A stretch of 64,000 nt of DNA from Oceanispirochaeta sp. (lineage in GTDB: Bacteria; Spirochaetota; Spirochaetia; DSM-2461), in contig CAXXOA010000001.1 of assembly GCA_963666275.2 (NCBI GenBank), positions 2,176,001 through 2,240,000 of the forward strand, read 5' to 3'. The notes below the pieces were generated by a model, which was not told the origin of the DNA, made no database searches, and worked only from the letters and a program-made list of their open reading frames with translations. The translations under genes and the position numbers were made by a program. Below, piece after piece: positions 6,893 to 46,560 of this stretch. Numbering within the stretch: the first letter of the stretch is position 1; each line of letters starts with the position of its first letter.

Positions 6893-7549
6893 TCACCCCT
6901 GCCCTAAGGCCATCTTATCCGCCTCATAATTGGCATTAATCCGATCCATCCGGTTCATCTGCCCTGGCATCTCTTGCCTGCCGACTTGAGGCGGCGCAAA
7001 ACTCTGCCCACCGGCAGGCTGCCCCATAAAAGGAGACGCCCCGGAAGCAGCCCCCCGGCTCATTCCTCCCGGATGGGACAAAGTATCAGGGTTCCAGACA
7101 GAACCAGCCTGATTCTGCCTGACAGCTTTCACCGCGGCCGGTTTCCCATTGCGAAATGAAACCGTATTTCCTTGCCCTGAGAGTCCCTGAGTGTTTGGCT
7201 TGCGCAATGTCAGCCGGGAGGGAGGGGGAAATCCTTTCCCTGAAAGAGAATTACCTTTTACGGCTGTTGCAGTTTTCTCAACGAGTGTTTTTCCGGAGGG
7301 ACTTGAACTTGTGGAACCGGAAGAAATTGAAGCTTCAGGAAATACCAGATTCTCCACCCGGGATCCTGCGGCCTGAGGTTTCAATGCCTGAACACTATTC
7401 CTGGAAGGATTGATCCTGTACCCCAGGTTGCGGTAACCCTGACCGCCGAAGGAAGCGGTTGCCAAAGGGATCCGTTTGCTAACCCGGGGAATTCTGCTTA
7501 TTGGCGCTGCCTTTGGTGACGTCATACCGGGCAACGCCCTCCATTCCAC
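6893..7549 (-). pseudogene. Orphan 3' fragment of the 1087-aa tape-measure-like gene (repeat copy 4), no cassette downstream
   Basis: Translation nearly identical to residues near the C-terminus of 16144..19407; ends at MALGQG* before the variable tip. Confidence 0.85.
6896..7530. repeat. Direct repeat of 16277-16910
   Basis: Nucleotide-level near identity by eye. Confidence 0.9.
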
Positions 7550-7736: not shown

Positions 7737-8252
7737 CTAATCGTTATAGACAATCAGTTCTCGATCTGTCACATCAATAATTGATTCACTATCAGCATCA
7801 AAATAGTAAACAAGTCTGTAAGTGTCTATTGTTTCTTTTCTGAAAGGGGTATCCTCTGAAGTTATTACAGAAAGAAAATCAACGTGCATATCTTTAATAA
7901 ATCCTGACTGATTCCTTAAGTATTCATTTTCAAACATGGAAATAATTTTTATATCAACAAGACTCTCAACTCCATTATCAAGATGTCTGGTCATTACTAA
8001 AATAGAGCATTTTTTATAAACCCTACGATACCCTGAAAGGTCACTTTTTACATCTCCAACCGTAAAAGATCCAAAATCATTCAGAAAATTAGTGAAATCA
8101 CCAGAGATTTCCAAGCCGATAAGGGAAGTGAGACCTAATGTTTCTCCACTTTCTATAATCGACTTAAGCTTTAATTCCAAGTCCTCTACTGTCAAACTGA
8201 ACAGAAAATGGGTTATTAATAAGAACAGGGTAATAAAAGATATTTTTTTCAT
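7737..8252 (-). CDS. Exported protein, putative immunity for the M23 effector
   Basis: Signal peptide MKKISFITLFLLITHFLFS; directly downstream of the effector; AT-rich. Confidence 0.6.
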   Translation of the reverse strand: MKKISFITLFLLITHFLFSLTVEDLELKLKSIIESGETLGLTSLIGLEISGDFTNFLNDFGSFTVGDVKSDLSGYRRVYKKCSILVMTRHLDNGVESLVDIKIISMFENEYLRNQSGFIKDMHVDFLSVITSEDTPFRKETIDTYRLVYYFDADSESIIDVTDRELIVYND

Positions 8253-8263
8253 TTATACTCCTC

Positions 8264-9472
8264 TTACTGTATATCCGTTGGATCAACGTAATAACGATTA
8301 TACCGATTCAAAACATCTGCATCTGGAGTGTCTACAATAGAGGCATTATCTCTATCCACATAACGCACTTCCATATGAAGATGTGGTCCAGTACATGCCG
8401 TTCCTGTATCTCCCGCATTGGCAAGATGATCCCCAACTTTAACAGGATCTTTATCTTTAACTTTTATTGAACCTTTCTGAAGATGAAATAGATTAAACTC
8501 ACCCCCATCCTCCAAAGTAATTCTTATAAAATAACCCAATTTCTTATTATGTTTAGCCTCTTTCACAACCCCTTCCACAGGCGAATACACAGGCTGCCCA
8601 ATCGTCTTATTCTGATTATTTTCTCTCCAAACCCAATCCTCACCAGCATGGGGATACGAAGCATCATAAGGATCTGTTTCTGCCAAGAACCCACCGCCTT
8701 CAACGCGCTTCCACCCCGGTTCAAACTGCTTGTAATACTCCGCAACCTCATCAGGCAGTTTTATCCGCCTCACTTCATTTTTCGCCAAATTCTCCCTCAA
8801 ATCCCAATACCACCTATCCATATCGTGGATATTATCCGGATTCTTTGTTCTGAATCTCATACCGGCTTCCGTCATCAATCCTATAACATACTCATCCGTC
8901 AATTCAGCCCCATCCATAGCTCTTTCCAGAATTTCTGTCAGACCTCCCTGAATGGCATCTTTTCCGATTGTTTTCGTTCCATTATAGGATGACATAATCT
9001 CTCCATAAGAGTTCCGCAAATGACCGCCTCCATGAAACTCCAAATAGCCATCATCCGTTAAGAACCAATAGTTATTACCGTTTTCATTATTCGGTAGGAT
9101 ATTCTTCTCGTCAACATCAATAGCCAAATTCAGAAGAAAATTAACTTTGGGGTCAATTGTTTGCTGATAATGGGGACCAAGCTCCTCACGCACGATAGCG
9201 TCTGTGGGCTGAGGTATATCAAGCCCCAAAAGAGACATCCATTTTTTGGATAAATTGAGAACAGTCCGCAGTTGATTATAATCATAAGATTCGGATTCAT
9301 GTATAAAAGCGTTCAATCCGGTCCTGTCAAAATTGGAGGCAATAATCTTTATTTCATTTAACACAGTCTCTTTAAACTTTCCGGGCCTATTCCCATTTAG
9401 GACATCATGAAGAGTAGAAACAGCATTCACCATCATTATTTGAATATCTAATCTCGAATATCCGTCAACCAT
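8264..9472 (-). CDS. Putative CIS effector 3: shared N-terminal domain plus C-terminal M23 peptidase
   Basis: HAGED, VYSPVEGVV, LFHL, GDTGTACTGPHLHMEV M23 motifs; no signal peptide. Confidence 0.8.
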   Translation of the reverse strand: MVDGYSRLDIQIMMVNAVSTLHDVLNGNRPGKFKETVLNEIKIIASNFDRTGLNAFIHESESYDYNQLRTVLNLSKKWMSLLGLDIPQPTDAIVREELGPHYQQTIDPKVNFLLNLAIDVDEKNILPNNENGNNYWFLTDDGYLEFHGGGHLRNSYGEIMSSYNGTKTIGKDAIQGGLTEILERAMDGAELTDEYVIGLMTEAGMRFRTKNPDNIHDMDRWYWDLRENLAKNEVRRIKLPDEVAEYYKQFEPGWKRVEGGGFLAETDPYDASYPHAGEDWVWRENNQNKTIGQPVYSPVEGVVKEAKHNKKLGYFIRITLEDGGEFNLFHLQKGSIKVKDKDPVKVGDHLANAGDTGTACTGPHLHMEVRYVDRDNASIVDTPDADVLNRYNRYYVDPTDIQ

Positions 9473-9483
9473 AATCAGTCTCC

Positions 9484-10305
9484 TTATATCCCAAATATCT
9501 TTGTAATATGCTGGGCGACTTGGATCTTCTCATCTTCCGTTCCGTACATCATTTCTTCTTTAAAGTGATCCACAAGTTTCTCTTTGACTTCTACCAAGCA
9601 CTCCCGATACTCTTCCGTAGTCATTTCAATAACCTTACCTGACGGGCTTAAATACCGGTACATTTCAATAGGTTCGGATTCTGTAAAATCTTCCAGATCT
9701 TTATCCGACGCATCCTGTTCTGCAATCAGTTCTTTATTCTTGAAGACAAGATCATCCTGTTTCCATATCTCAAATAAGTCGCTATCTTCCGGATTATGTC
9801 CTGTCTGTCCTTCCAGTTTATAGGCTTCTTTTTCCGCTCCCGACACATCTTCCCGATAGGTCAGCCGCTGTCCTTTTTGGTTCTGCCTGACATGCTCTAC
9901 CTCATGCAGCAGGAGGGCTTCTCCTTCTTCTGTATGAGGGGCATAACTACCTGAGGAAAAATAGATATCCTTTCCGAAAGTCAGAGCATCCGCTCCAGCT
10001 TTGTGGGTGATTTCTTCCGCATAGGGGCCCGTGTGGATTTTCACTTCGGAAAGGTCTTTTCCATAAGTCAATAAAAAGAGGTTGATTAAAGCTGTATCCG
10101 GCGCAAAAATATGGTCATAAACCTCTTTTTTGGCTTCATATGAAGTGATCAGGCCATCTGGTTTAAACTCTTGATCCGGGTTCTGCATTCTGGAGTTATT
10201 GTTACCTGTCTTCTCTATTACATTAAGATAAGCCCCATTTGCCAATTCAAATAGATTCGTGAATTTATTATGCCAGGAAATTGTTACTTCTTGATTACCA
10301 CTCAA
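9484..10305 (-). CDS. DUF4157 (eCIS core) domain protein, copy 3
   Basis: DLSEVKIHTG...AGADALTFGKDIYF...LLLHEVEHVRQ. Confidence 0.9.
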   Translation of the reverse strand: MSGNQEVTISWHNKFTNLFELANGAYLNVIEKTGNNNSRMQNPDQEFKPDGLITSYEAKKEVYDHIFAPDTALINLFLLTYGKDLSEVKIHTGPYAEEITHKAGADALTFGKDIYFSSGSYAPHTEEGEALLLHEVEHVRQNQKGQRLTYREDVSGAEKEAYKLEGQTGHNPEDSDLFEIWKQDDLVFKNKELIAEQDASDKDLEDFTESEPIEMYRYLSPSGKVIEMTTEEYRECLVEVKEKLVDHFKEEMMYGTEDEKIQVAQHITKIFGI

Positions 10306-10835
10306 CTTTCTACCCTCTTGATATCTTCAACAATATTATGAACATCAATAGCAGTATATTTTTTTCTTTGGCTTACACTTCCCCCGGCATGCCCCACCGA
10401 ATGACTCTGCGTCTTGGCCAGCATCCTCTGCTCTCCATACTCACCCTGCCCCAAGGCCTGCTTATCCGCCTCATAGTTCGCATTAATCCGGTCCATCCGA
10501 TCCATCTGCCCCGGCATCTCCTGCCTGCCGAACTGAGGCGGCATAAAGCCCTGCCCTCCGGCAGGCTGCCCCATAAAAGGAGACGATCCGGAAGCAGCCC
10601 CCCGGCTCATTCCACCCGGATGGGACAAGGTCTCAGGGTTCCAGACAGAACCAGCCTCATTCTGCCTGACGGCTTTTACCCCAGCCGGTTTCCCATTGCT
10701 AAATGGAATCGTATTCCCTTGTCCTGAGAGTCCGGGAGTGTTTGGCTGTCCCACTACCAGCTTGGGCGAAGGGGTAAAACTTTTTCGGGAAAGTGAACCT
10801 CTTTTTTTTGGCAAAATCCCCGCAAGATGTTTCAA
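10302..10835 (-). pseudogene. 3' fragment of the tape-measure-like gene (repeat copy 3) with an alternative C-terminal tip
   Basis: QPNTPGLSGQG...HSVGHAGG matches the C-terminus of the 1087-aa protein; DNA 10381-10750 matches 16214-16583. Confidence 0.8.
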
Positions 10836-11013
10836 GTATGGGGGTAATCCTCCTGTTAACCGATCATTTGAATATTTTTAATTGCGGGGTCGGGCTATAC
10901 GTTTCAATTCGCTTAATCGGTACGCTTTTCGGACTACCTCCGGGCCGCCCTGCGTACCTGGCTCATTTTCACTACTATCCCTTTTTAGTGTTAATTTTTT
11001 ATTTACCTGAAAA

Positions 11014-11178
11014 TTACTTCTGACTAAGAAAAGCTCTGATACTGGATTCAAAATCAGGTAATTCCCATTTTATCGCCATGTCTAAAGGAGTTTCTCCATT
11101 ATTATTTTCTTTCTTAGAGAAAAGATTATCCTCTACTAGATATTGGAGTATTTCATTGTTTTCATAGCCTACGGCAAA
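11014..11178 (-). pseudogene. Ankyrin-repeat gene remnant (3' end only)
   Basis: Hand translation FAVGYENNEILQYLVEDNLFSKKENNNGETPLDMAIKWELPDFESSIRAFLSQK*; no start codon ahead of the repeat. Confidence 0.65.
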
Positions 11179-11951
11179 CCTGCAACATATACAACATATT
11201 TTGCAGGATAGTAATTACCAGTAGACCCAACTCTAAAAAATTCGGTCCGATCATTATTGATTTTGTAAGCAGAGACAGCAACTGAATACAGTCCTTCAGC
11301 TATTATCGATTCTGTAATCATCAATTGATCACTTTCAACATTTCCCAGAATATCGTCATAATCAGTAAAACCCACAAATAGAGAATCTGGTAAACTAATG
11401 CGATTATCCTTTATCCCAATAATTGAAAAACTCTTATTGTTGTCCACTGATTTAAAAAACAAACTATAAAAGTCTACATTAGGAATATTATTAGTCCATA
11501 CAATTTCCAAGTTAGCGGAATCATTACGTTCCGTAGGATAATCAGTAAGCTCTATCTCATTATATATAAAAATAGTATTTGTCTCTATTTTATGTTTAGA
11601 AATAATAAAACTATCAAAACTTCCATATATAATTTTGGGTGAAGTAAGAGTATTTTCTGGATGTGAATATTGCCAGATTGGAAAATCTGGAGAAACATCA
11701 ATAGTTAAATCTATTATATCATTTTCATCTATTTTGACAGAAAAGCTATTGTTTTTATCCGTCTTTACATCGCACCCAGAGAATCCTTGTGAATTCTTTA
11801 CTCTGTATGAAATATGCAATGGGAAATCTTCAACATTTCCATAAGTTTCTACAGTCCCTTTGACAGTTGTGAAATTGCAACTTAGTAATATTAGAGGGAA
11901 TAATACAAATAAATATTTTTTCATATTAAAATCAAACTTGTCATTCTTCAT
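11169..11951 (-). CDS. Lipoprotein, putative immunity for effector 2
   Basis: MKKYLFVLFPLILLSC lipobox; overlaps the effector stop; AT-rich. Confidence 0.6.
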   Translation of the reverse strand: MKNDKFDFNMKKYLFVLFPLILLSCNFTTVKGTVETYGNVEDFPLHISYRVKNSQGFSGCDVKTDKNNSFSVKIDENDIIDLTIDVSPDFPIWQYSHPENTLTSPKIIYGSFDSFIISKHKIETNTIFIYNEIELTDYPTERNDSANLEIVWTNNIPNVDFYSLFFKSVDNNKSFSIIGIKDNRISLPDSLFVGFTDYDDILGNVESDQLMITESIIAEGLYSVAVSAYKINNDRTEFFRVGSTGNYYPAKYVVYVAGLP

Positions 11952-12751
11952 TTTATAGACGGCGCAGCCCCAGAGATTGCGTCAACTCCTTGATATGGAA
12001 AGATAATTTTTTTCAGTTCATCTTTTGATAATATTTCAGTCAAAGCATCCGCCATTAAATCATGATCATTAAATAATAATCTTTTTGCAATTTCGCTATC
12101 TGTAATCCTAGTCCATTCAAAATCTGGTTGATTCAAAGCGGCACCTTCTCCATCCCCTGGTAAATATTGTTCAAGAGTCCAACCTGTTATAGCGGTTTTG
12201 TTTCTATTAGAATATACTGTAATTCTTAACTGCCCCCATCCACCTTCTATTGCATCGGTAATACTGTGAGCTTTTGTACCAGCTCCAGAGTCATCAATAC
12301 CAACAGGTAAGCATCCTTCAATTACCCGTGCAATGACTGGATATTCTGATTCTATTACTTCAGAAGGGAACTGGAGCCTTGTATTATTATTTGAAATATT
12401 TTGGTGCCTAACATATGGATTCCCATATGAATCATTAAAATATTGTATTAACCCTTTTGTTGGTAAATCGCGCATAGAAACATCGCAAGGATTTGATAAC
12501 TTTAAGTAATTTGATTGAGCTGGATTAATACCAATAAGATGTAACCAATACACACAAACTTTCTGAATCTCATTTAATTCATGATTTCCATATTTAGAGA
12601 ATTCTTCGAAGAAATCATTAAAATTGAAATTCTTGAGCTTACCTTTTAACTCTTTATTATTCGGGTTCTCTTCTTGCCCTCCAAAAATTTCCAAAATGGA
12701 TCTATATGTTGATTTGGCAAGGTCTTTAATCTCATTTTCTTGATTCCCCAT
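11948..12751 (-). CDS. Putative CIS effector 2: shared N-terminal domain plus unrecognised C-terminal domain
   Basis: N-terminal ~80 aa align with effectors 1 and 3; same position in the cassette. Confidence 0.65.
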   Translation of the reverse strand: MGNQENEIKDLAKSTYRSILEIFGGQEENPNNKELKGKLKNFNFNDFFEEFSKYGNHELNEIQKVCVYWLHLIGINPAQSNYLKLSNPCDVSMRDLPTKGLIQYFNDSYGNPYVRHQNISNNNTRLQFPSEVIESEYPVIARVIEGCLPVGIDDSGAGTKAHSITDAIEGGWGQLRITVYSNRNKTAITGWTLEQYLPGDGEGAALNQPDFEWTRITDSEIAKRLLFNDHDLMADALTEILSKDELKKIIFPYQGVDAISGAAPSIK

Positions 12752-12802
12752 TATATCTCCTTGTAAATATCGTAGACAGTCTGTTGGTGGGATGGATAAA
12801 AC

Positions 12803-13606
12803 CTAGCTTTTAAAGATCTTCATCATTTTATTTATGACTTCAGTTTTCTCTTCATCAGAACTGTACATCATAGATGTCTGAAATTGGTCTTCAAGTTTTT
12901 CCTTTATGATCTTTAATGAGCTTTTATAGTCTTTTTCTGACAATTCATGGACTCTTCCGGATTGACTTACATAGCGATATGTCAAAGGTTCATTGTGAGA
13001 AGAGAAATCTGCCAAGTCTTTATCAATAATATCCAGTCCATTCGTCAAATCCTGATCTTTAAAGATAAGATCCTTCTGTTTTTGGAGATCAAACAGTTCT
13101 CTATTCTCAGTATCGATATCTGATAAACCTTCCTGACTATTGGCCTGTTTTTCTGCCTTATCGATATCTTCTTTATATATGTGACGATCCTGTCTACGAT
13201 GCTGCTCAACATGTTCAGCTTCATGCATCAGCAATTGTCTGCCGTATTCAGTATCCGGAGAAAAGCTTCCGGATGAAAAATATATATTCTCACCCATTGT
13301 CAATGCATCTGCACCAGCCTTGTGAGTGATCTCCTCGGCAAAAGGACCTGTATGGATTTTCACATGAGACAGATCACTTCCATAACGGATGAGAATCTCA
13401 TTTATCAAAGAGCTATCAAGCGCATGTATTCGGTCTAATCGCTCTTTTTTCATTTCATAGAGACTTATCAAACCTTCAGTTCTTAGCTCATTATCCGGAT
13501 TCTGCATTCTAGAGTTTTTGGTTGTTGCATCGCTAGATGGTAACAGATAATGCATGGTTACCAGTTCAAGAAGATTTATGAATTTTCCATAAGATTCTTG
13601 TCCCAT
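12803..13606 (-). CDS. DUF4157 domain protein, copy 2
   Basis: DLSHVKIHTG...AGADALTMGENIYF...LLMHEAEHVEQ. Confidence 0.9.
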   Translation of the reverse strand: MGQESYGKFINLLELVTMHYLLPSSDATTKNSRMQNPDNELRTEGLISLYEMKKERLDRIHALDSSLINEILIRYGSDLSHVKIHTGPFAEEITHKAGADALTMGENIYFSSGSFSPDTEYGRQLLMHEAEHVEQHRRQDRHIYKEDIDKAEKQANSQEGLSDIDTENRELFDLQKQKDLIFKDQDLTNGLDIIDKDLADFSSHNEPLTYRYVSQSGRVHELSEKDYKSSLKIIKEKLEDQFQTSMMYSSDEEKTEVINKMMKIFKS

Positions 13607-13607
13607 A

Positions 13608-13973
13608 TTATGACTCCCTGTTTAAATCATCCAAGACATCATAAATAAATACACTTTTAGTATTTAGTCTTCTTGATCCAGTTCCCTCAGCATGCCCCAC
13701 CGAATGACTCTGCGTCTTCGCCAGCATCCTCTGCTCCCCTTGCCCCAGTGCCATCTTATCCGCCTCATAATTCGCATTAATCCGGTCTATCCGGTTCATC
13801 TGCCCCGGTATCTCCTGCCTGTCGACCTGAGGCGGCACAAAACCCTGCCCAGCGGCAGGCTGCCCCATAAAAGGAGACGCCCCTGAACCAGCCCCCCGGC
13901 TCATTCCGCCCGGATGGGACAAAGTATTAGGATTCCAGACAGAACCAGCCTGATTCTGCCTGACAGCTTTTAC
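13608..13973 (-). pseudogene. 3' fragment of the tape-measure-like gene (repeat copy 2) with an alternative C-terminal tip
   Basis: DNA 13690-13973 matches 16220-16512 with a 9-bp deletion (GQGEQRM vs GQGEYGEQRM). Confidence 0.85.
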
Positions 13974-14016
13974 TGAGAATCATAAAATCCATATTAGTGG
14001 AGAATTCGAAGTGTTT

Positions 14017-14553
14017 TTATTTTAGCTCTGATAGTTGATCATGAAGAGAATGCCATCTATTATCTGCCAAGTCATGCTTATCAACCCATTGTAAAGTTTT
14101 TTGAATTGAAGCAATCTTCCAAAATGGATCTGAATAATCAAGTATTAATAAATCTCCGGTAGATTTGGATAAATAATATTTTCTAGAAAAGATTAATGAT
14201 TCTTTAGAAAAGATATAATCTTCGACATTTCCTAATGTCTCAAAATTTACAGTAACAACACAGATTTCCTCTTCTATTGGTTCCATTAAATTAATATTCA
14301 TTTTCATAGTTTCAATATTGGTTATTTTAAAATGACTAGTTACGACATGAATACTGTTTTTATCTCCTGGTGGAATAGCTATATCTGGGTGATAATAATC
14401 AACAACTGTATAATAATAATCAATGCCGGCTTCAAGCCTTTTATATATATGATTAGACACAATTTTTTCAGCCTGAAATTCCTCACCACTATAAGAGAAG
14501 AAATTAGTAAAAACTAAGAAAATCAAACCAAATAGTTTACTCTTAAAATACAT
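14017..14553 (-). CDS. Exported protein, putative immunity for the NlpC/P60-like effector
   Basis: Signal peptide MYFKSKLFGLIFLVFTNFFSYS; overlaps the effector stop. Confidence 0.6.
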   Translation of the reverse strand: MYFKSKLFGLIFLVFTNFFSYSGEEFQAEKIVSNHIYKRLEAGIDYYYTVVDYYHPDIAIPPGDKNSIHVVTSHFKITNIETMKMNINLMEPIEEEICVVTVNFETLGNVEDYIFSKESLIFSRKYYLSKSTGDLLILDYSDPFWKIASIQKTLQWVDKHDLADNRWHSLHDQLSELK

Positions 14554-15313
14554 TGCTTCTCCTTCTATAATATTCTATTGAAACTTCCGTATAATCTGTT
14601 CTGTTTTTATAATATGATTCTAAGTAATCAGATGTAAATCTTACCCCATTAGGATTATCATCAGAATGTAGTAATGCTCTACGGCCGGACTCTCCTGTTA
14701 TTATAGCTGCATGACCTTGTGTTTTTCCTGTTTTTGGATTTGTAGCACGCCAGACTTTTATATCTCCTGGTTGAGGCTCATCAACTTTCTCTAAATCAGG
14801 ATTATTTCCTATTTCGCCAGTTCTGTAGATTGAAGTATCATTTGCATATGCTATAAACTCAGAACAGTCAACTTTTATTGGTTTTTCAGGGACAATCATG
14901 GAACCATTATATTCCCCATCATAACCGGTTCCATAAGGAGTTCCTAATAATTTTTCACCCCTTTTTATTGGATTAATATTATCTATATCTTCAACAGGAA
15001 TATCAAAGACTTTTTTTTGCCCAGACTCTTCTCTTAAATATTGCAACAACTCTTTATGCATATTTACAGGATCAATTCTTAATATAGCCAACCATTTTTC
15101 ACAAACTGTATAAATACTCTTCAATTCATCTTTTCCATAGGAACTTGACTCTCTGATAAAATTATTCACATTGAAATGATTGATAAATCGTCCCAATTCA
15201 TTTCTGCTTTCTTGTGGAAAACTCCCGGGCCTTTTTCCTTCAAAAACATCTTTAATCGTGAAATAAGTAAATATTGCCAATGACCGGGTATCAAACTTTG
15301 TCAGTTCACTCAT
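14543..15313 (-). CDS. Putative CIS effector 1: shared N-terminal domain plus NlpC/P60 (CHAP-like) peptidoglycan hydrolase
   Basis: LGTPYG, VDCSEFIAYA (Cys), PQPGDIKVW, GHAAII (His), LLHS. Confidence 0.75.
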   Translation of the reverse strand: MSELTKFDTRSLAIFTYFTIKDVFEGKRPGSFPQESRNELGRFINHFNVNNFIRESSSYGKDELKSIYTVCEKWLAILRIDPVNMHKELLQYLREESGQKKVFDIPVEDIDNINPIKRGEKLLGTPYGTGYDGEYNGSMIVPEKPIKVDCSEFIAYANDTSIYRTGEIGNNPDLEKVDEPQPGDIKVWRATNPKTGKTQGHAAIITGESGRRALLHSDDNPNGVRFTSDYLESYYKNRTDYTEVSIEYYRRRSNVF

Positions 15314-16143
15314 TACAGGATTCTCCCATCAAATAACTTAACCAGATTATTTATAGTAGCGTTTCGTTGATCCTCACCACTGTATCGTATCTCATCTTCA
15401 AACTTTTCTTTCAGCCTGGAAAGAATCTCTTTCAAACAACTCTGATACTCTTCTTTCGTCAATTCATGAGTACGACCGGATAAACTATTATACCGATATA
15501 TTACAGGATCATTACTGGTCGTATACATTTCAAGATCCTGCTCTACCGCATCAAGTCCATCATTAAGATCCGTATTCTTAAATATCAAATCATTCTGTTT
15601 GAATCGTTCAAAAAGATCTATATCATCGAAATGACTGCCACTCAGACCCTCCTGATTGAGAGCCTCCAGCTCCGATTTTTCAAAATCTTCCCGGAATGTT
15701 AAGTTTTGGCCCTTTCGGAATTGATTTACATGCTCTAATTCATGCAGAAGCAGTTCTTTTCCCTTTTCCGTTTGAGGAGCAAAACTACCTGATGAGAAAT
15801 AGATATCATTCCCCATAGTTAAAGCCTCTGCACCTGTTTTATGTGTAATCTCTTCAGCATAAGGTCCAGTATGAATTTTCACATTTTCCAAGTCTAACCC
15901 ATATAAAAGATAAATGTTATTTATTAAAGAGACATCCAATGCGAAGACACGATCCAACCTATGTTTTTCCTGGACCTTTGCAGTGACCAAATTCTCAGTT
16001 CTTAATTCACGATTAGGATCAGGCATTTTAGGATGAAAACTTAATGCTTGTTCTGAAACACCGATATATGATCCGATAGCAAGTTCTACAGATGTAAGAA
16101 ACAGATTAAGACTGGAAAAAATTACTTCCCGTTGACCTCCCAT
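15313..16143 (-). CDS. DUF4157 domain protein, copy 1
   Basis: DLENVKIHTG...GAEALTMGNDIYF...LLLHELEHVNQ. Confidence 0.9.
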   Translation of the reverse strand: MGGQREVIFSSLNLFLTSVELAIGSYIGVSEQALSFHPKMPDPNRELRTENLVTAKVQEKHRLDRVFALDVSLINNIYLLYGLDLENVKIHTGPYAEEITHKTGAEALTMGNDIYFSSGSFAPQTEKGKELLLHELEHVNQFRKGQNLTFREDFEKSELEALNQEGLSGSHFDDIDLFERFKQNDLIFKNTDLNDGLDAVEQDLEMYTTSNDPVIYRYNSLSGRTHELTKEEYQSCLKEILSRLKEKFEDEIRYSGEDQRNATINNLVKLFDGRIL

Positions 16144-19100
16144 TTAAAACTCCCTCTGTAAATCCTCAATCACATCATCAATAAAAACAGTTCTATTTGT
16201 TTTTCTGATTTCACCCCCGGCATGCCCCACCGAATGACTCTGCGTCTTCGCCAGCATCCTCTGCTCTCCATACTCCCCCTGCCCCAGTGCCATCTTATCC
16301 GCCTCATAATTCGCATTAATCCGATCCATCCGATCCATCTGCCCCGGCATCTCCTGCCTGCCGAACTGAGGAGGCACAAAGCCCTGCCCACCAGCTGGCT
16401 GTCCCATAAAAGGAGTCGCCCCGGAAGCAGCCCCCCGGCTCATTCCTCCGGGATGGGACAAGGTATCAGGATTCCAGACAGAACCAGCCTGATTCTGCCT
16501 GACAGCTTTTACCGCAGCCGGTTTCCCATTCCTAAATGGAATAATATTCCCCTGTCCAGAGAGCCCGGGAGTGTTTGGCTGTCGCAATGTCAGCCGGGAC
16601 GGAGGTGTAAAATCTGTTGCGGAAACAGAACTACCTTTTACGGCTATTGCAGTTTTCTCTATGGGATTGGTTCCGGAGGGAATTGAACTTGTGGGACCGG
16701 AAGAAACTGAGGCTTCCGGAAATACCAGATTCTCCACCCGGGATCCAATAGCCTGGGATTTCAAAGCCTGAACGTGGTTCCTGGAAGGATTGATCCTATA
16801 CCCCAGGTTTCGATAGCCCTGACCACCGAAAGAAGCGGTTGCCATAGGGATCCGTTTGCTGACCCGGGGGATTCGGCTTATTGGCGCGGCTTTTTGCGGC
16901 GTCATACCGGACAAAAGAGAGGGAGCCGAAACTCCCTGACTTCCAACAGTACGGGTCATGGCCTGTTTTATAGGGCTCCGCATAGCGGAAGGAACGCCCT
17001 CCCACTGGCCGGAAGCTGCAGAAGCAATCAGAGGGATTAACTCCTCTCTCGGGAGAATCAATTCAGGTGTTACACCGCCCTCTTCATAAAAGGTATCTGC
17101 CACAGCCTGTATGACCTCACTCTGTTCAGGAACAAACGTGGTGATCGGAGGAATCACCATATTTGTTCCAGCTTTAATCTGGGACACACCAGAGACTTTT
17201 CCTGAGGCAATCATACTCTGCTGTTTTTCTATTGAGGATATACCGGAAGTACCCAGTTTACTCTCCAGCCGGTTTTTCAACAGATCAAACTCATCCCCGG
17301 TAAAAGCCTGCGACTCCCACTGTTTCACCGCCTCAGCGCTGACAGTTTCACTCAGCCCCGCCTTGCGGTAGACCGCCCTCACTTCTTCCAGCTGAGCCCG
17401 ACTCAAAGGACCGGCCCCCTCTGAGGGAACCGACAGAACAGCCAGAAGATCTCCCGTCAGGGGGAGGACTGTTTCGGGGAGGACAGCCGGCAGGGTCTCT
17501 TCGCTGGTGCCTCTTACAGAACCGCCCTTTTCCAGGACCAGTCCGGTTGAAACGTCCAGAGGTTTGTACAGGCTCTCACGGGGAACCGACTTCACCGGGG
17601 CGGCCATAAGGGCGGCGCTGTCCAGGACTATTCCCAGGGACTCTTCAAAATAGACCTCTTTGGAGGCTATATTCCCTGCATCGGGGCTCTTCCTGTTTAT
17701 GGCATCCACCGAACGGACCAGGTCGCCTACGGTCATCCCTGTACTCATCTGTACCGTCCGGTATTCAGCCAGAGCGGATGACAGCTTTTTGTTAAACCCC
17801 TTCCGGTCCACAGGGGGAATATTCAGTTTTCCGACGGTTTCTTTCAGAGAAGCAGCCTCTCCTTCGGTCAGCTTTGAAGCCGCAGAGGCTTTCTCCAGGT
17901 CTGCTGACTGAAAGAAATCAAATTCCTTTGGAGATCCTGCTTGTCCGAAGGGCTTTTTCCCCTGGCACAACTCTCCCAGAGACACTTTGCCGGTCAGAAC
18001 CGCATCGGACTGCTTCCCTGTTTTCCCCAGACCACTGTTCCAGGCTTCATCCAGAACAGCCGTATCATCCAGTGTCGTATCCTGCAGCAAAGGCAGAACC
18101 GCTGAGATAAAGGGCATCACATGACCCAGTTCTTCACCGGACACTTCTTCACCTTTCCTGTCCAGCCAGGCCTCCGCTTCGGGAGTCAGATCAGAGGCAA
18201 TGGCATCCCGGTCTTCTTTAATAAAAGGATTAAGAGGAAGCTCTATCACCTCCTCTCCCGCACTCAGAATCTCTCCGGCCTGCTTATTAGTTAGGCCGCT
18301 CTCTTTCAGCCGGGCAAAGGCTCCCAGAGTCAGACTGGCCGCTGCGGCCTCTTCCCGTTCACTGCGGTCAGCCTGAACCAAGTCTCGGGTCTCGGTGCTT
18401 CCTTCTTCCAGAATTTTCACACCCTTCCCCAACTTCTCCCGGTACACCTTTTTCACCTCATCCGGTGTTCCCTGGGGAAGGACGACTCCCACAGGGGAGG
18501 TTCCCTTCAGTTCAGCTTCCACCCTCTTCCAGGCGGCATCCGGATCGTTTTTTACAGCCCCGTAGAGCTCTCCCTCCAGGGTGTAGTAGTACTCTTCCTC
18601 TTCCTGTACCAGTAACAGAGCGGTATCAAATATAACCGGGCCGTCCAGGGTAGAGACCATCCGGATCTCCCTGGTTTGACCTTCCGGCTCGGCGGTAATG
18701 CCCCCTTGCCGGCCGCTTGTCTCATCCACCATAACCCAGTCGCCCTCTTTGTTCAGAGCGCCGAACCAGCCCTGTTTCTCCACCCGGTAGTTGGGGTCAT
18801 ACTTTTCCCGGTTCCAGTCAAAACCGCCTTTGTCACTGGTCCGGTCAAACCGGAGCCGGGCTTTTTCTTTGTTATAGGTTTCGCTGACGCTGCCGTCTCC
18901 ATAGAGGTAGATCCGGGATGAACCTGTTTCGGCGGCAGAGTTTTTCTTTATTCTATTCCGGCGCATTCCGGCGGGTTTCAGATCTTCCAGATTCCGGCCC
19001 AGGCTCTCCAGATGTTTTTCTGTTAACACAGTCATAGCCCCGGTGGTTCCGGCAAAACTCCAGAGCATCTGCTGGCTGCTGCGGTTCAAAAGCATATCTT

Positions 19101-19407
19101 TCCGGAAGGCATCGATCCGTTCGGAATCTCTTCTTCCTCCGGGGAAGAACTCATCGGGGTTGAAAAACACAGAGTCCTGTTCTGCCTGGCCGGAAGCCAC
19201 GAGCTGGGACTCTATACTGTGCCGGGCCTCTTCTTTCCGGGCCTCCCCTTCGGGGCCGTCCAGACTCAGACCTTCCTCATAGAGATCAAAGGCCTTCTGA
19301 ATCTCTTCGTCCTTCTTTGTATAAGAGTCCTTTGAAAAATAGCTCAGCAGTTCGTCAATCATATTTTCACCCCTTTGTTCCCGCTCAAAAACGATCCTCA
19401 CACTCAC
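16144..19407 (-). CDS. Large CIS protein in tape-measure position with a low-complexity C-terminus
   Basis: 1087 aa; directly follows the chaperone/DUF6760 pair, as tape-measure genes do; function is positional inference. Confidence 0.5.
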   Translation of the reverse strand: MSVRIVFEREQRGENMIDELLSYFSKDSYTKKDEEIQKAFDLYEEGLSLDGPEGEARKEEARHSIESQLVASGQAEQDSVFFNPDEFFPGGRRDSERIDAFRKDMLLNRSSQQMLWSFAGTTGAMTVLTEKHLESLGRNLEDLKPAGMRRNRIKKNSAAETGSSRIYLYGDGSVSETYNKEKARLRFDRTSDKGGFDWNREKYDPNYRVEKQGWFGALNKEGDWVMVDETSGRQGGITAEPEGQTREIRMVSTLDGPVIFDTALLLVQEEEEYYYTLEGELYGAVKNDPDAAWKRVEAELKGTSPVGVVLPQGTPDEVKKVYREKLGKGVKILEEGSTETRDLVQADRSEREEAAAASLTLGAFARLKESGLTNKQAGEILSAGEEVIELPLNPFIKEDRDAIASDLTPEAEAWLDRKGEEVSGEELGHVMPFISAVLPLLQDTTLDDTAVLDEAWNSGLGKTGKQSDAVLTGKVSLGELCQGKKPFGQAGSPKEFDFFQSADLEKASAASKLTEGEAASLKETVGKLNIPPVDRKGFNKKLSSALAEYRTVQMSTGMTVGDLVRSVDAINRKSPDAGNIASKEVYFEESLGIVLDSAALMAAPVKSVPRESLYKPLDVSTGLVLEKGGSVRGTSEETLPAVLPETVLPLTGDLLAVLSVPSEGAGPLSRAQLEEVRAVYRKAGLSETVSAEAVKQWESQAFTGDEFDLLKNRLESKLGTSGISSIEKQQSMIASGKVSGVSQIKAGTNMVIPPITTFVPEQSEVIQAVADTFYEEGGVTPELILPREELIPLIASAASGQWEGVPSAMRSPIKQAMTRTVGSQGVSAPSLLSGMTPQKAAPISRIPRVSKRIPMATASFGGQGYRNLGYRINPSRNHVQALKSQAIGSRVENLVFPEASVSSGPTSSIPSGTNPIEKTAIAVKGSSVSATDFTPPSRLTLRQPNTPGLSGQGNIIPFRNGKPAAVKAVRQNQAGSVWNPDTLSHPGGMSRGAASGATPFMGQPAGGQGFVPPQFGRQEMPGQMDRMDRINANYEADKMALGQGEYGEQRMLAKTQSHSVGHAGGEIRKTNRTVFIDDVIEDLQREF

Positions 19408-19415: not shown

Positions 19416-19625
19416 CTATCTGGTTTGGTCTGCCCGAAGGGCTTCTACATAGTTCCTGGTATCAGAATTGATCCGGTTGTTGATCTTTTCCAGCTCAGCA
19501 AGCCAGCGCCGCCGTTCGTTCCGGCTCATATCCAGGACATCCCGTCGGCTCCAGTGAAAGTAGTAGGCCAGGTATGCCGTCTCCCCGTAAATATCTCCGG
19601 AAAGACGGCTTATACTTCCCCCGGG
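19416..19625 (-). CDS. DUF6760-like domain, probably the -1 frameshift extension of the tail chaperone
   Basis: YGETAYLAYYFHWSRRDVLDMSRNERRRWLAELEKIN; no start codon at the junction; lies in the -1 frame. Confidence 0.75.
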   Translation of the reverse strand, partial: PGGSISRLSGDIYGETAYLAYYFHWSRRDVLDMSRNERRRWLAELEKINNRINSDTRNYVEALRADQTR

Positions 19626-20341
19626 AGACTCAACTCCACCCGGTTCCTGTTCCCGCAGGAACAAAGGTCTTCCCTATCCCGGATCACTCCGTTATTCAGC
19701 TCATTAAAAAGGTCTACCAGAAAAGCAAAATCCGTCGGAGAGAGTTTGGTAATCACACTGTTATTGATGGACCTCTCAGATCCCAGTTTTTTCACCGTCC
19801 GGGTCAAAAGCCCCACATAAAACCACGAAGGGTTCTCTCTTGTTCTGGGATCCCGGTAAAGAGTCAGGAAATCCCGGCACCGGGCCATTGCCATCTCACC
19901 CCGCACTTTCGACCCCATCTCCGGTTTTAATCCGCTCCCATGGGGTAAACGGAAAGGGCATCTCTCTTTAATCTCATCTACAGCTGTATTCGCAAAAAGA
20001 GAACTGACCGCCAGATCCCTTTTATTCCCGCAGACCGGACATCGGTAGGAGATCTGTTCCCCCTCATTGCGGCTGTTAAAGAGCAACTGGAGATACACAA
20101 AATCCGCCTCGTACAGATCCTCCAGAGTCTCAGCGGTCACTGAGGATAAACTTCCCAGAGAGGAGATCAGCCGGGACAAAAGTTCCAGATCCCTCTGCCG
20201 GTCGTTAAACCGCACACTGTCCAGCTCCTGCAGCACAAGTTCATCTTCCGCTGTGGCATCCCTTAAAAATCCTGTTCTATGGATCACACCATCCTTATCT
20301 TTCAGCCCTAAAGGCAGAGTAAACTCACATCCGGCAGTCAT
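19610..20341 (-). CDS. CIS tail assembly chaperone with two tandem domains, each ending in a Cys-rich motif
   Basis: EFTLPLG...HRTGFLRDATAEDE...ADFVYLQ repeated as FRLPHG...DPRTRENP...TDFAFLVDLFNELN. Confidence 0.75.
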   Translation of the reverse strand: MTAGCEFTLPLGLKDKDGVIHRTGFLRDATAEDELVLQELDSVRFNDRQRDLELLSRLISSLGSLSSVTAETLEDLYEADFVYLQLLFNSRNEGEQISYRCPVCGNKRDLAVSSLFANTAVDEIKERCPFRLPHGSGLKPEMGSKVRGEMAMARCRDFLTLYRDPRTRENPSWFYVGLLTRTVKKLGSERSINNSVITKLSPTDFAFLVDLFNELNNGVIRDREDLCSCGNRNRVELSLPGEV

Positions 20342-20532
20342 GACAGCTTCTCCAGTTTTTGTTCAACGTATTGATTCATTTTTTCGATAGTTTCCAAATC
20401 CAGAGGTTCAAAGGCAAACTCTCTGTAAATATCATCCAGAATCGCCCGGGCCTGATCAGGATAGGGAAAGTCGATTAATTCAAGGTCACCGGTATTTCGG
20501 TTCACTTTCAGGTATTTTCTGTCGTCACTCAT
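20338..20532 (-). CDS. Small hypothetical protein
   Basis: 64 aa, translationally coupled to both neighbours. Confidence 0.65.
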   Translation of the reverse strand: MSDDRKYLKVNRNTGDLELIDFPYPDQARAILDDIYREFAFEPLDLETIEKMNQYVEQKLEKLS

Positions 20533-20900
20533 CAGTTCATCTCCAATTGCCTGAAACGGGGGGCCGATTCATCCCGATGTTCTGTCGCCGAAGGAGCCGG
20601 TTTCATAACCTCTTCTTCCTCATGAGAAATTTCGATCCGCCGGCCGCCTCTTTTCCAGACGACCCTTCCGCCTTCCACGACAAAATCCCGGAATTCCGCA
20701 AAATCATATTTATCCTTTAAATAGAGCATTAAAGAGGTAAAATTGGGGATTTCCGGATCTGCTGCAGAAACAGAAGCCTGAGGAGAGGCCGAGGAATTGG
20801 AACCTTTTTTGTTATACTCCTCATAAAGCATACAAAACCCATCGGTCAGAACCTCACGGCTCAAGTTGTTCAGCCCGGTCATTAAGCTATCATTATCCAC
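20532..20900 (-). CDS. Hypothetical protein
   Basis: Start reassigned to GTG at 20900 after the GAGGAG RBS. Confidence 0.6.
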   Translation of the reverse strand: MDNDSLMTGLNNLSREVLTDGFCMLYEEYNKKGSNSSASPQASVSAADPEIPNFTSLMLYLKDKYDFAEFRDFVVEGGRVVWKRGGRRIEISHEEEEVMKPAPSATEHRDESAPRFRQLEMN

Positions 20901-21621
20901 AAAGAATCTCCTCTTCAAATTTGACCCAGCTCCCCTCCGGCCGGGAGGGGACGTAAGGCAGATTATCCATGCCGGAAGGATTTCCCTGACATCCAAGAAA
21001 AATGACATCCTCACGCTCTGTCAAATCCCAGTCAACATGAGAGAATACACAGTTCAGAAACACACAGCGATCCAGATGGGAAAAGGCAAAAAACGTCCCG
21101 GAGATATGACACCCCATAAACAGGGAATCGCTGATGTTCGTGTGTTTCAAACCAGTGATACCTGAGGGATGGTCTGCCGCAAAAGAACTATTAACAGCGC
21201 AGATGGAGTTCAAAACACCATGGCTGATTTCCGGTTCGATCATGGCAAAATTCTTGAGCCGCACCGAGTCCATTTTCAATCGGGGTCCAGAGCATCCTCT
21301 GAAAGAACCACCATAAAAAGAGGTGTTTCTGATATGAGAACCTCGGAGCTGAGTACTGATAAAAGAACTGTTCGAAAAAGAAGAATCTGAAATCACCATC
21401 AGCTGTAAAGAGCACTGATCAACTACCCCGTTGCAAACCAGGGAGGAGCAAATAATCCCCTGATCCATAACAGCCCGGTACAGGGCAGGCATATCCAGTT
21501 GTTTCCCGGCAAACTTCAACTCGGGAAAAGAACCTTCATTCATTTGCCAGTTTTTCAGCAGAGTACTGTTTATAAGCTCATCCCTGATAAGAGTAAGACA
21601 GCCGGATCCCTGAAAAATCAT
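20893..21621 (-). CDS. Pentapeptide-repeat protein
   Basis: SSFSNSSFISTQLRGSHIRNTSFYGGSFRGC; SLFMGCHISGTFFAFSHLDRCVFLNCVFSHVDW. Confidence 0.7.
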   Translation of the reverse strand: MIFQGSGCLTLIRDELINSTLLKNWQMNEGSFPELKFAGKQLDMPALYRAVMDQGIICSSLVCNGVVDQCSLQLMVISDSSFSNSSFISTQLRGSHIRNTSFYGGSFRGCSGPRLKMDSVRLKNFAMIEPEISHGVLNSICAVNSSFAADHPSGITGLKHTNISDSLFMGCHISGTFFAFSHLDRCVFLNCVFSHVDWDLTEREDVIFLGCQGNPSGMDNLPYVPSRPEGSWVKFEEEILCG

Positions 21622-21827
21622 TTTTCAGTTTCTCCGTAAATATGAACCTTTTCGTTATCATCTTCTTTGTAATACTCAGAGGTTTTTTCTCTCTGCTGCA
21701 CAATTCCCAGGGCTTCTTCAAACTCTTTTGTCATTTCCAGACAACTTGAACCGTCCACTCCCTGAACATGAATCTGAACATCGCCGTTTTTATCAATTGT
21801 TATTTCCAGTTCCTGCTTTTTTGCCAT
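21618..21827 (-). CDS. DUF2997 domain protein
   Basis: ELEITIDKNGDVQIHVQGVDGSSCLEMTKEFEEALG...KTSEYY. Confidence 0.85.
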   Translation of the reverse strand: MAKKQELEITIDKNGDVQIHVQGVDGSSCLEMTKEFEEALGIVQQREKTSEYYKEDDNEKVHIYGETEK

Positions 21828-21847
21828 AATCTATCCTTCTAACGCCC

Positions 21848-23380
21848 TTATACCATTTCCAGTTTCCGGGCGCTCTCTTCGTCTTCCATAAAACTGATTT
21901 CACTGGCCTTACGGGCTCTTAAATCCGCCCAGTTCCTGATATTCTTAATCTCCTCACTCATGGTCTGAGAGAGAGGGATCATGGAGCCCACCGAACCATT
22001 CAAGATCTCCTGGTCGATATCACAGCCCTTATCGAAGGCATCGTATAAGGCACTGATAACGACTTCTTCAATTTCAGAACCAGAGTACCCCCGGCATAGT
22101 CTGGAGAGATGCTCCAGATCATAGTTTTCCGGGTTCCGGTTCCTTTTATTCAGATGAATCCTGAAAATCTCTTTCCGTTCCTGATGATTGGGCAGATCGA
22201 TGAAAAAAATCTCGTCAAAACGCCCTTTTCTAAGCAGTTCAGGGGGCAACTGAGAGATGTTATTGGATGTGGCCACCACAAAAACGGGACTGGTTTTTTC
22301 CTGCAGCCAGGTTAGAAAAGTACCGAAAACACGGGCGGAAGTACCCCCGTCAGTCATCCCGGATGATCCCATACCGGAAAACCCCTTTTCCAGCTCATCC
22401 AGCCATAAAATGGAAGGCGCGATGGATTCAGCCGTCTGTATGGCTTTCCGGACATTCTCCTCACTGCTTCCCACCAGGCTGGAAAAGACTTTTCCCACAT
22501 CCAGACGCAAAAGGGGAAGCTGCCACAGTGAGCTGACGGCCTTGGCTGTCAGAGACTTACCGCAGCCTGGAATACCGATCATCAGAATTCCCTTTGGTTC
22601 GGGCAGACCGAAATCCCTGGCCTCTTTGGTAAAGGCTTTGCTCCTTTTATTCAGCCACTGCTTCAGATTTTCCAGACCGCCGATTTCGGCCATCTTTTCA
22701 TGGGAACGGTAGTACTCCAGAACCCCGGATTTCCGGATAATCTGTTCCTTTTCCGAAAGGATCACGGAAATATCAAACTGGCCGGTTTGCACCAGTGATT
22801 TGGCAAACACATTTTCTGCTTCTTCCGCGGTCAGCCCCAAAGCCGCTTCCACGACTTTTTCTTTCTGCACGGAACCGTCCCATAAGGCGGCCTGATTGGG
22901 GAGCGAACCTGTAATCTCATCAATTATTCTCTCCAGTGTTGCCTTATCGGGCAGATCGAAATCTACAATGGTAACATCTTTTTCAATGTCCAGAGGAACT
23001 TTCAGAATGGGGGACAGGAGAATCACATTTTTCATGCTGATTTTCAGTTCCCGGCTGATATCCCGGAGTTTCCTCACCACCACGGGGTCATTCAGAAAGG
23101 GATGGAAATCCCGCAAAAGGAACAGACCATTCACATCACTCTCCAGAATATGATCCAGAGCTTTGATCGGCTCCCGCAGATCAGCGGCGCTGCTGCCGTC
23201 GTCCGATTCCAGCCCCTTCGTAACAGACCAGATAAAAAATCTCTTACTTCTGCCATGGGCAATACCCTTCAGAGTCTCTTCCACCCGTTTCTCTTCACTG
23301 GATATGATATTGATAAGGGGATACCTGGCCCGGATCAGGACCTCGATTCTCTCTTTAATGCTTAAGTTTTCTGCTGTCAT
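21848..23380 (-). CDS. AAA+ ATPase, Ycf46-like
   Basis: IRARYPLI...EEKRV degenerate first domain; [19 protein letters not shown] Walker A, LWLDELEK Walker [12 protein letters not shown]. Confidence 0.9.
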
Positions 23381-23413
23381 AAATTTGATTCCTTCTTTGT
23401 ACCCGATTCATGT

Positions 23414-23968
23414 CTAAATGCCTGTTAAAACTAACTCACCATTGGTGTGAATAATGATCTCTTTTTCCACCAGACAGGTTCTTCTCTTCCTCTTCATCAA
23501 CCTGCCGTTTTCCGAAAGGGCTATAATCCTCTGATTCCCCGACCCGGCCCACTCTCCTTCCGGCGGGAGATCCGATCTGTAGGGACCGTCAATCAGCAGA
23601 TCAATCCGAGACAGGAGTTCCCGGGATCCCGGAAGTATTTCCTTTTTCAGATCACAGAAGGAGAATCCACTATACACGATAGAGTTCAGTCCCCTTCCGG
23701 TACACTCCCTGATCAGAGGAGAGAGTTCTCTGGCCTGTAGAAAGGGTTCTCCTCCGGAGATTGTGATTCCTTCCACATCTGCCTTCCTGATCAATGAAAG
23801 CAATTCCTCCAGTTCGTAATCCCGGCCACCCTGAAGAGACGCCGCCGATGGATTGAAACACCCGGTGCAGTTGAGAGGGCACCCCTGGGTCCACAGAACA
23901 AACCGTTTCCCGGGGCCGTTTACAAGAGATGTATCCAGTATGTCATGAACCCTGATAGCCACACTCAT
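23414..23968 (-). CDS. Radical SAM 4Fe-4S protein, NrdG/activase-like
   Basis: VNGPGKRFVLWTQGCPLNCTGC, GITISGGEP, DLLIDGPY, GSGNQR. Confidence 0.85.
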   Translation of the reverse strand: MSVAIRVHDILDTSLVNGPGKRFVLWTQGCPLNCTGCFNPSAASLQGGRDYELEELLSLIRKADVEGITISGGEPFLQARELSPLIRECTGRGLNSIVYSGFSFCDLKKEILPGSRELLSRIDLLIDGPYRSDLPPEGEWAGSGNQRIIALSENGRLMKRKRRTCLVEKEIIIHTNGELVLTGI

Positions 23969-25014: not shown

Positions 25015-25026
25015 GAGAACTCCTTT

Positions 25027-25647: not shown

Positions 25648-25656
25648 AACAACCTC

Positions 25657-28789: not shown

Positions 28790-28797
28790 GGATTTCC

Positions 28798-29175: not shown

Positions 29176-29183
29176 ACTCCCTC

Positions 29184-30713: not shown

Positions 30714-30723
30714 CTCAACATCC

Positions 30724-31500: not shown

Positions 31501-31510
31501 TTTCGGTGTT

Positions 31511-31912: not shown

Positions 31913-31922
31913 ACCTGACTCC

Positions 31923-33732: not shown

Positions 33733-33783
33733 TTTTAAACAGGAAAGGGGATTACCCGGGATTGAATCACCCCGGGTAAACAC

Positions 33784-34212: not shown

Positions 34213-34235
34213 CTTTCTTCTCCTTCTTAAAAGAT

Positions 34236-35459: not shown

Positions 35460-35486
35460 AATCCGATTTCTCCTTCCTCAATTTCT

Positions 35487-40389: not shown

Positions 40390-40408
40390 GTTTCAGGAGG
40401 TTTTCATA

Positions 40409-42927: not shown

Positions 42928-42937
42928 GGATATGCCA

Positions 42938-46460: not shown

Positions 46461-46560
46461 GCCAAAACATTCCCATAGCCTGTTCCGGCGGCATGGGAAA
46501 TCCTGGAGAAAGGAGAAATTCTCCGGGTTAAGTATTGGAGGCGCCGCAGGGTCTGCCCCG

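Follow-up and report, generated by a model that had tools for sequence, protein, structure and literature searches.

The DUF4157 domain is the commonest cargo marker of extracellular contractile injection systems (eCIS), and its role is called open in the available sections of bioRxiv 10.64898/2026.05.27.728243, PMC11297309 and PMC8213781. Here we analyse a 64-kb stretch (the window) of the 5.27-Mb genome of Oceanispirochaeta sp. (G000), in which a contractile injection system (CIS) operon is continued by three toxin cassettes. The putative toxins, T1, T2 and T3, share an N-terminal domain of about 80 residues, and each has its own DUF4157 gene (D1, D2 and D3). On balance, and with moderate confidence, we read the domain from its sequence context as an address tag that would be bound by the neighbouring DUF4157 protein, itself held by the C-terminal tail of a 1087-aa protein (BIG), thereby bringing the toxin into the particle.

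PVC-type and other DUF4157-bearing eCIS toxins, as covered by the available parts of PMC3482391, PMC8213781 and PMC11297309, occupy the same 3' place in the operon and feature a DUF4157 domain with HExxH, variable tips and some immunity genes. In contrast to the PVC-type and DUF4157-fused toxins, DUF4157 is separate in the loci examined here, there is one DUF4157 gene per cassette, the shared N-terminal domain is predicted to be folded, and copies of the 3' end of a gene in the tape-measure position delimit the cassettes. The adjacency of toxin genes to a separate DUF4157 gene is already in print (parts of PMC8213781 and PMC11297309).

Streptomyces Sle1/Sle2 (bioRxiv 10.1101/2025.11.06.686954) and Tme (PMC11126660), according to the sections available, have the same small stand-alone DUF4157 gene adjoining the effector, a link to tape-measure-like cargo and exchangeable effector domains. 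In Streptomyces, the small DUF4157 protein binds both the N-terminal region of the adjacent effector and a tube-initiator protein (same preprint, in part), in line with the role proposed here. However, the Sle1 N-region is a 440-aa coiled coil, whereas here a bundle of 80–100 aa is found in proteins of 256–402 aa; further, a separate third gene encodes the protein in the tape-measure position, and the locus comprises several toxin-immunity cassettes in an array. By analogy with these partial descriptions, the cassette would work most like Sle1/Sle2, and it lacks the defining features of DUF4157-fused toxins and of disordered loading peptides. The eCIS loading sequences (Cgo1/2 of AlgoCIS, Pdp1 and Pnf of PVC; available text of bioRxiv 10.64898/2026.05.27.728243) are likewise N-terminal, system-specific and common to the cargos of one system. 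They are, however, disordered and stand in cis with DUF4157, whereas here the domain is predicted to be folded and a low-complexity stretch is found in BIG instead.

Orphan cassettes of the Rhs, CDI and MafB systems begin with a partial copy of the upstream gene. As in those arrays (PMC3482391, in part), the downstream toxin-immunity cassettes seen here are suited to replacement by recombination. Unlike there, the anchor is in a different gene, two upstream of the toxin, and a swap would exchange the tail, DUF4157, the whole toxin and the immunity gene. As in polymorphic toxin systems generally, T1–T3 share the N-terminal part and have unrelated C-terminal tips, and spare cassettes with homologous anchors are present (repeats of 85–86% identity; the mosaic of T3, P0017 and P0012), from which we infer switching. 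The tube, sheath, baseplate, spike and AAA ATPase genes all lie in one cluster, and by its sequence features the locus would qualify as a polymorphic toxin system on a CIS. The haloarchaeal CIS/T6SS (PMC11566945, in the part available) has the same combination of CIS, DUF4157 proteins and cognate toxin-immunity pairs, used there against prokaryotes. It is membrane-anchored, whereas the window system could be released or anchored alike: the candidate immunity genes and a hydrophobic segment in the VWA protein of the operon may leave a membrane-anchored mode possible beside a released particle.

The domain, the tail motif and the four-part cassette are not described in the literature searched (mostly freely readable and seen in part, including PMC12210884 and bioRxiv 10.1101/2021.10.19.465003), the supplementary tables of eCIS loci and predicted toxins of Geller 2021, Danov 2024 and Zhang 2012 being places that may list such loci. 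Spirochaetes are not mentioned in the main texts of Geller, Danov or Microbiol Spectr 2025; Zhang 2012 (PMC3482391) includes them in the PVC range, and the window layout is not among its available passages. With this layout, the range of toxin-immunity arrays on CIS comes to include spirochaetes; related loci occur in named Treponema records, and the cassettes yield tips and candidate immunity proteins of no known family. If the proposed role is right, toxins would be loaded by a folded tag and an adaptor, a second route besides the disordered signal peptides, the cassettes would form an undescribed polymorphic-toxin class across treponemes, and DUF4157 would gain a testable in-trans adaptor role.

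The shared domain and the repeated cassette

The sequence-only reading had proposed that three unrelated effectors share a new N-terminus of about 80 aa. Its three open reading frames (ORFs) stand as quoted (Table 1), and the similarity is significant. The N-terminal 95 residues of T1–T3 align with local scores of 115, 126 and 52 (z = 17, 23 and 6), with none of 2000 shuffles as high in each case, while the remainders are unlike one another (465, 159 and 786 of 2000 shuffles reach the score). Profiles built from two N-termini retrieve the third among the 19,058 ORFs of the genome at E-values of 3e-16, 3e-6 and 1.6e-7, the next best match having E of at least 0.74. The pairwise identity of the domains is 33%, 28% and 19–22%.

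The domain matches no known family: no curated family in Pfam, NCBIfam or PHROG covers it, and when 28 domains were compared with the libraries at E 0.1, no Pfam family appeared in more than one and no NCBIfam family in more than two. For named effector marker domains (PAAR, LXG, WXG100, MIX, FIX and others) the same limits apply, as far as the two libraries contain models for them. The word-index search with T1 residues 1–90 returned only the self match, the atlas search gave no usable match, and sequence searches of the PDB gave nothing useful. AlphaFold2 with a 9-row alignment models T1 residues 6–77 as four helices (pLDDT 76–84 over residues 11–80), the rest being unresolved; hence the prediction for the domain is a folded helical bundle, not a disordered segment. 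Foldseek with this model finds no match at E 0.001. In a VIA fold search the best hit (Z 6.0, rmsd 3.4, 72 aligned residues) is a designed helical protein; the arrangement is common, and only generic bundles were retrieved.

The unit proved larger than the sequence-only reading had described, as it also takes in the immunity-like genes downstream and the 3' end of the 1087-aa gene, which is repeated. The genes follow in the order BIG, D1, T1, I1; a copy of the BIG 3' end, D2, T2, I2; a copy, D3, T3, I3; and a truncated copy. The cassette is therefore a BIG 3' copy, a stand-alone DUF4157 gene, a toxin and a signal-peptide gene, occurring three times, as expected if these parts act together. The BIG copies (382–639 nt, 85–86% DNA identity) have a GC content of 50–55%, and the D, T and I genes of 28–42%. 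Cassette genes abut or overlap, with purine-rich stretches ahead of the starts. In each window cassette the conserved core of the BIG tail is followed by a variable tail of its own. D1–D3 are 48–49% identical to each other. PF13699 is found in D1–D3 only and in none of 34 toxin-slot proteins, so that DUF4157 is never fused to a tip in the loci examined.

Table 1. Features of the cassette array and of the injection-system operon (positions in the window)
Feature	Coordinates	Strand	Remarks
CIS operon	19416..39470	-	Family scans: gp25, baseplate J, two sheaths, two gp19 tubes, CIS_tube-LysM, hub, AAA ATPase, tail chaperone, DUF6760; extra genes VWA, FHA, radical SAM, DUF1257
BIG	16144..19407	-	1087 aa; after tail chaperone and DUF6760 genes, tape-measure slot; Pro/Gly/Ser/Gln-rich 800-1000; conserved C-terminal tail motif
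BIG tail motif	16144..16335	-	Residues about 1025-1087; NYExDKxxL core; stand-alone 65-aa gene in some treponeme-type loci
D1	15313..16143	-	Stand-alone DUF4157/eCIS_core, 276 aa; HExxH 134-138 and E158
T1	14543..15313	-	256 aa; shared domain and NlpC/P60-CHAP-like tip (weak HMM support, catalytic motifs present)
Shared domain, copy 1	15071..15313	-	T1 residues 1-81; predicted helices 6-25, 34-46, 49-56, 61-77
I1	14017..14553	-	178 aa; signal-peptide-like N-terminus; overlaps T1 stop; candidate immunity gene
Repeat 2	13601..13973	-	382-nt copy of BIG 3' end, 85% identical; own tail and stop
D2	12803..13606	-	DUF4157 protein, 267 aa; 48% identical to D1
T2	11948..12751	-	267 aa; shared domain and orphan tip
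Shared domain, copy 2	12518..12751	-	T2 residues 1-78
I2	11169..11951	-	Lipoprotein-like (hydrophobic stretch, then Cys); overlaps T2 stop; candidate immunity gene
Repeat 3	10313..10806	-	494-nt copy of BIG 3' end, 85% identical
D3	9484..10305	-	DUF4157 protein, 273 aa
T3	8264..9472	-	402 aa; shared domain, unnamed middle domain (126-255), M23 peptidase tip
Shared domain, copy 3	9218..9472	-	T3 residues 1-85
I3	7737..8252	-	171 aa; signal-peptide-like N-terminus; candidate immunity gene
Repeat 4	6896..7534	-	639-nt copy of BIG 3' region, 86% identical; stop inside tail motif; no cassette after

In phage tails, the tape measure gene sits in the slot after the tail chaperone. By gene position alone, BIG would be a tape-measure-like protein. 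Its homologues align from residue 16, and the true start may be 45 nt later.

The array plainly arose through block duplication, and one could see in the domain a mere relic of it, three gene copies whose ends were later replaced and which have no trafficking role. However, none of the DUF4157, toxin and immunity-like frames is interrupted, catalytic motifs are preserved at 48–49% and 19–33% identity, and six metagenome proteins begin with the same domain and have other tips. Hence this explanation is largely refuted, and we hold it to be very improbable.

Repeat 4 ends in a premature stop; beyond it lie an AT-rich gap and an unrelated gene of lipoprotein-like type (5517–6746), and the region is probably the scar of a lost cassette. 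No BIG-cassette joints, and hence no evidence on switching, were seen in the contigs of three runs from one sample, perhaps the source of the window, which agree with each cassette and break at the repeats. The contigs from all three runs depart from the window sequence at 10357, within the tail of repeat 3 (10357–10393), which could be a variant junction or a chance match. A search for related loci with the three DUF4157 proteins yielded none in genomes and one generic DUF4157 in metagenomes, and D1 had no match among phage records.

Relatives of the domain and of the cassette

The profile of the three window sequences (window-type) was searched against 1.84 billion representatives and gave eight matches, namely T2 itself, six new metagenome proteins with the domain at residues 1–88, and one spurious match, the LysM protein P0016. 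Among the relatives, two have M23 tips, as has P0017, the full-length protein in the cluster of P0010; an NlpC/P60 tip also occurs, and two tips have no confident family assignment. Three relatives are on contigs of sizes 33870, 29736 and 6025, and close DUF4157 homologues are on contigs of equal size, which suggests linkage to DUF4157 genes. The proposal of polymorphic toxins with a shared N-terminus beside DUF4157 gained support. Its extension, the domain as a marker of a new effector class, holds to a limited degree: the profile finds six new proteins in 1.84 billion, misses the treponeme-type forms described below and does not score in the toxin slot of any of the three nearest relatives with the same machine.

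The window-type profile has no match in 37 other genomes of the order, five of which carry the same machine with sheaths 89–91% identical. The three nearest relatives with an assembled region have BIG, DUF4157, the toxin and the downstream gene once each.

A more distant form was found in treponeme-type loci. In a sample of 401 genomes of one family (f2), 24 hold this DUF4157 type, 29 match a domain profile and 20 have both, 15 of these 20 having supplied training rows. The nine domain-only genomes comprise three spurious matches, four domain-toxin genes, one case following DUF4157 fragments and one at a contig edge, which had no score on re-check. In a class-wide sample the domain occurs in only 3 of 401 genomes, G000 and two of the f2 family. 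The profile-profile comparison of the window-type and treponeme-type domains over 81 columns yields a probability of 59.5% and a score of 27.1, the maxima being 13.9 for 196 column shuffles and 19.9 for 200 block shuffles; with larger alignments the probability is 51.6%. Hmmsearch fails to bridge the two forms in either direction.

The treponeme-type loci share the window layout: a BIG homologue, the tail motif NYExDKxxL, DUF4157, the toxin and a downstream gene; arrays of such units are frequent. There is also a second order, with a stand-alone 65-aa motif gene between DUF4157 and the toxin; the trio is kept, which is consistent with a joint function. All 11 named loci sharing the tail motif are Spirochaeta, Treponema or Treponemataceae records. 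When loci are collected by the BIG tail motif alone, DUF4157 comes next in all 11 cases and the treponeme-type domain after it in eight, again as expected for a joint function. Four of the eight are outside the training set; of the other three loci, one is at the end of its contig and two have non-scoring N-termini.

Among 38 distinct treponeme-type domain ORFs, 24 are directly behind DUF4157, 11 directly behind the tail motif and three behind neither, a count biased by the fetching of loci around DUF4157. The 11 cases, including G307 C2 where BIG is followed straight by the toxin, are what one would expect if the domain bound the tail motif of BIG (or the spike) directly, DUF4157 having a separate task; the variable tail that each window cassette has behind the conserved core also fits. 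However, DUF4157 is the commonest neighbour, and the domain subtype tracks the DUF4157 subtype despite the change of order (G307a, G189c, G646), so that we consider direct tail binding quite improbable.

G307 holds both gene orders. In its second array (L047–L048, C1 788–818 kb), six toxins combine near-identical N-domains with different tips, and a 65-aa motif gene directly precedes each of five. In L101, L102 and L104 this DUF4157 type lies away from the CIS cluster (G014, G013 and G012), two of the genes being behind a gene labelled by eye as an RluA-like pseudouridine synthase.

Proposed loading of the putative toxins

In the proposed mechanism, the helical bundle shared by T1–T3 would bind the DUF4157 protein encoded directly upstream, which in turn would hold the conserved tail motif of BIG, and this link would bring the likely antibacterial tip into the injection particle. 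Jointly, the three genes would mimic the one-chain eCIS cargo of a disordered leader, DUF4157 and a tip, as in AlgoCIS. By recombination of its 3' end with one of the downstream copies, BIG would acquire a new tail together with the DUF4157, toxin and immunity genes of a spare cassette, which would thereby be promoted, while the cassettes between would be deleted. Since tag and adaptor would for the most part move as a pair, the contact between them could drift freely, and this would account for the poor conservation of the tag. The scheme as a whole, a three-gene cargo whose weapon is changed by recombination with spare cassettes, is put forward tentatively. An in-trans chaperone role for DUF4157 has been proposed before (PMC11297309, in the part available).

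Across 23 cassettes there is co-variation between the identities of the DUF4157 proteins and those of the domains (rho 0.24; 26 of 5000 permutations; 10 of 864 within-genome re-pairings), as expected for interacting partners. Several observations weigh on the other side. The co-variation is weak, and physical linkage alone would produce it. Two G504 cassettes have DUF4157 proteins 83% identical and domains only 23% identical. In four genomes the domain toxin is directly behind an immunity-like gene, and no DUF4157 is detected at E 1e-8. In AlgoCIS, DUF4157 is dispensable for loading (bioRxiv 10.64898/2026.05.27.728243, available part). The putative distant homology of the window-type and treponeme-type domains rests on the profile-profile comparison and synteny. 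Finally, the toxin N-termini of all three nearest relatives match no profile, with scores no better than those of shuffles: the slot is conserved, and the tag in it drifts fast or is replaced.

The sequence-only reading had the domain itself as a loading signal; in such a scheme the AAA ATPase or the tube would read it, and DUF4157 would be accessory. The N-terminal position, the lack of a Sec signal in T1–T3, the near-identical domains of the six G307 C1 toxins and the existence of domain-toxin genes without an adjacent DUF4157 all agree with it, as does the need of AlgoCIS for the N-terminal region and not for DUF4157 (same preprint, in part). On the other hand, the loading sequences described in the available text are disordered, whereas this domain is predicted to be folded; if one shared machine read the signal, conservation would be expected, whereas the copies within a single operon have 19–33% identity, and relatives with sheaths 89–91% identical have unrecognisable N-termini. 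Moreover, the domain diverges faster than its DUF4157 neighbour (22–41% against 42–52% identity). Because of this faster divergence, and because each window toxin has its own DUF4157 gene, a tag bound by an adaptor fits better; of the original claim a part in loading is retained, and direct reading of the domain seems unlikely.

The HExxH motif and the downstream ExxA are invariant in all 28 aligned DUF4157 proteins, and most PVC-metallopeptidases are called releasing peptidases in the available part of PMC3482391. The DUF4157 proteins may accordingly be active zinc peptidases that release or mature the toxin, with the domain as a docking site or pro-piece and loading achieved otherwise. The linker right after the domain is the least alike part among P0011, P0012, P0017 and T3, as cleavage there would suggest. 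However, no conserved cut motif is visible behind the domain, and Cgo1 toxicity is cited as independent of the metalloprotease motifs (PMC11297309, in part). We judge the peptidase role, taken in place of an adaptor role, distinctly unlikely, the two being compatible rather than exclusive.

For the adaptor role, the window offers a small separate DUF4157 protein between two short undescribed partner modules. Since three natural DUF4157 variants are present in one operon, cognate and non-cognate binding can be compared directly.

Toxin tips, candidate immunity genes and the operon

The tips of T1–T3 are likely antibacterial. As the sequence-only reading had it, they are mutually unlike, being NlpC/P60-like, M23 and unassigned. 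The M23 match of T3 is above the cut-off (E 8e-15; HxxxD 275–279, HxH 364–366). The T1 tip is NlpC/P60-CHAP-like under the Pfam cut-offs (E 0.004; PHROG 329, E 5e-6), with Cys150, His201 and His216 motifs, and has no BLASTP alignment with the P0015 tip. The T2 tip has no sequence relative, and the single-sequence fold prediction for T2 has a pLDDT of 36. Language-model features of this tip (11948–12499) resemble unnamed clusters and clusters of phage portal fragments at 0.96–0.97; a relationship to portal fragments is not backed by PHROGs or Pfam at E 10 and is a lead only.

I1–I3 are mutually unrelated, and each starts with a hydrophobic segment, which T1–T3 lack. No known immunity family was found among the window proteins in the family scans; from their place we infer that I1–I3 are putative cognate immunity genes. 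Among the treponeme-type domain proteins, 14 of 33 end in a Pfam tip above the cut-off, with nine families represented (Ntox30, Ntox44, Endonuclea_NS_2 (4), Tox-SHH, AHH, Peptidase_C39_2 (3), YkuD, M23 and SAA), a diversity that fits delivery of exchangeable toxins. Ntox30 and Ntox44 we take to be nucleases. A hydrophobic start of the next gene is absent after all eight nuclease-type tips and present after six of seven peptidase tips, the count covering all but five rows with unassigned or SAA tips; the predicted compartment would thus match the tip type, as for putative toxin-immunity pairs. By the same rule T2 likely acts on the cell envelope, since the next gene is lipoprotein-like.

T3 is a mosaic. 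Its front and middle are 60% and 80% identical to those of P0017 and its tip 39%, whereas for P0012 the values are 35%, 63% and 74%, as exchange of tips would produce. Residues 126–255 of T3 (8708–9097) form a second unnamed domain, 60–80% identical in P0011, P0012 and P0017; it has no family match and can also be recognised in the toxin of G010 and in one L101 ORF. It is likely a pre-toxin domain, tips being exchanged at its end.

In the CIS operon, the tail chaperone gene matches PHROG 508 (E 8e-9), and the CIS13 match is far under the cut-off (38 against 370 bits). The tail chaperone (19610–20341) is an internal tandem of two similar halves; in treponeme-type loci the halves are separate genes on either side of the pentapeptide and 160-aa genes. 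The radical SAM, pentapeptide-repeat, DUF1257, FHA and VWA-zinc-ribbon genes embedded in the operon (20532–33783) are kept in related loci and possibly form an anchoring or regulatory module.

On the plus strand, two VgrG-type genes (40319–42927) open a second effector region (40319–49679) with a VgrG-PAAR fusion, a C39-like peptidase (819 aa), a C39 fragment and two NADase_discoid-domain proteins; NADase_discoid also follows toxins in treponeme-type cassettes. Adjoining this region, on the minus strand (49754–50560), is the gene of a SprT-like HExxH protein with a coiled-coil tail.

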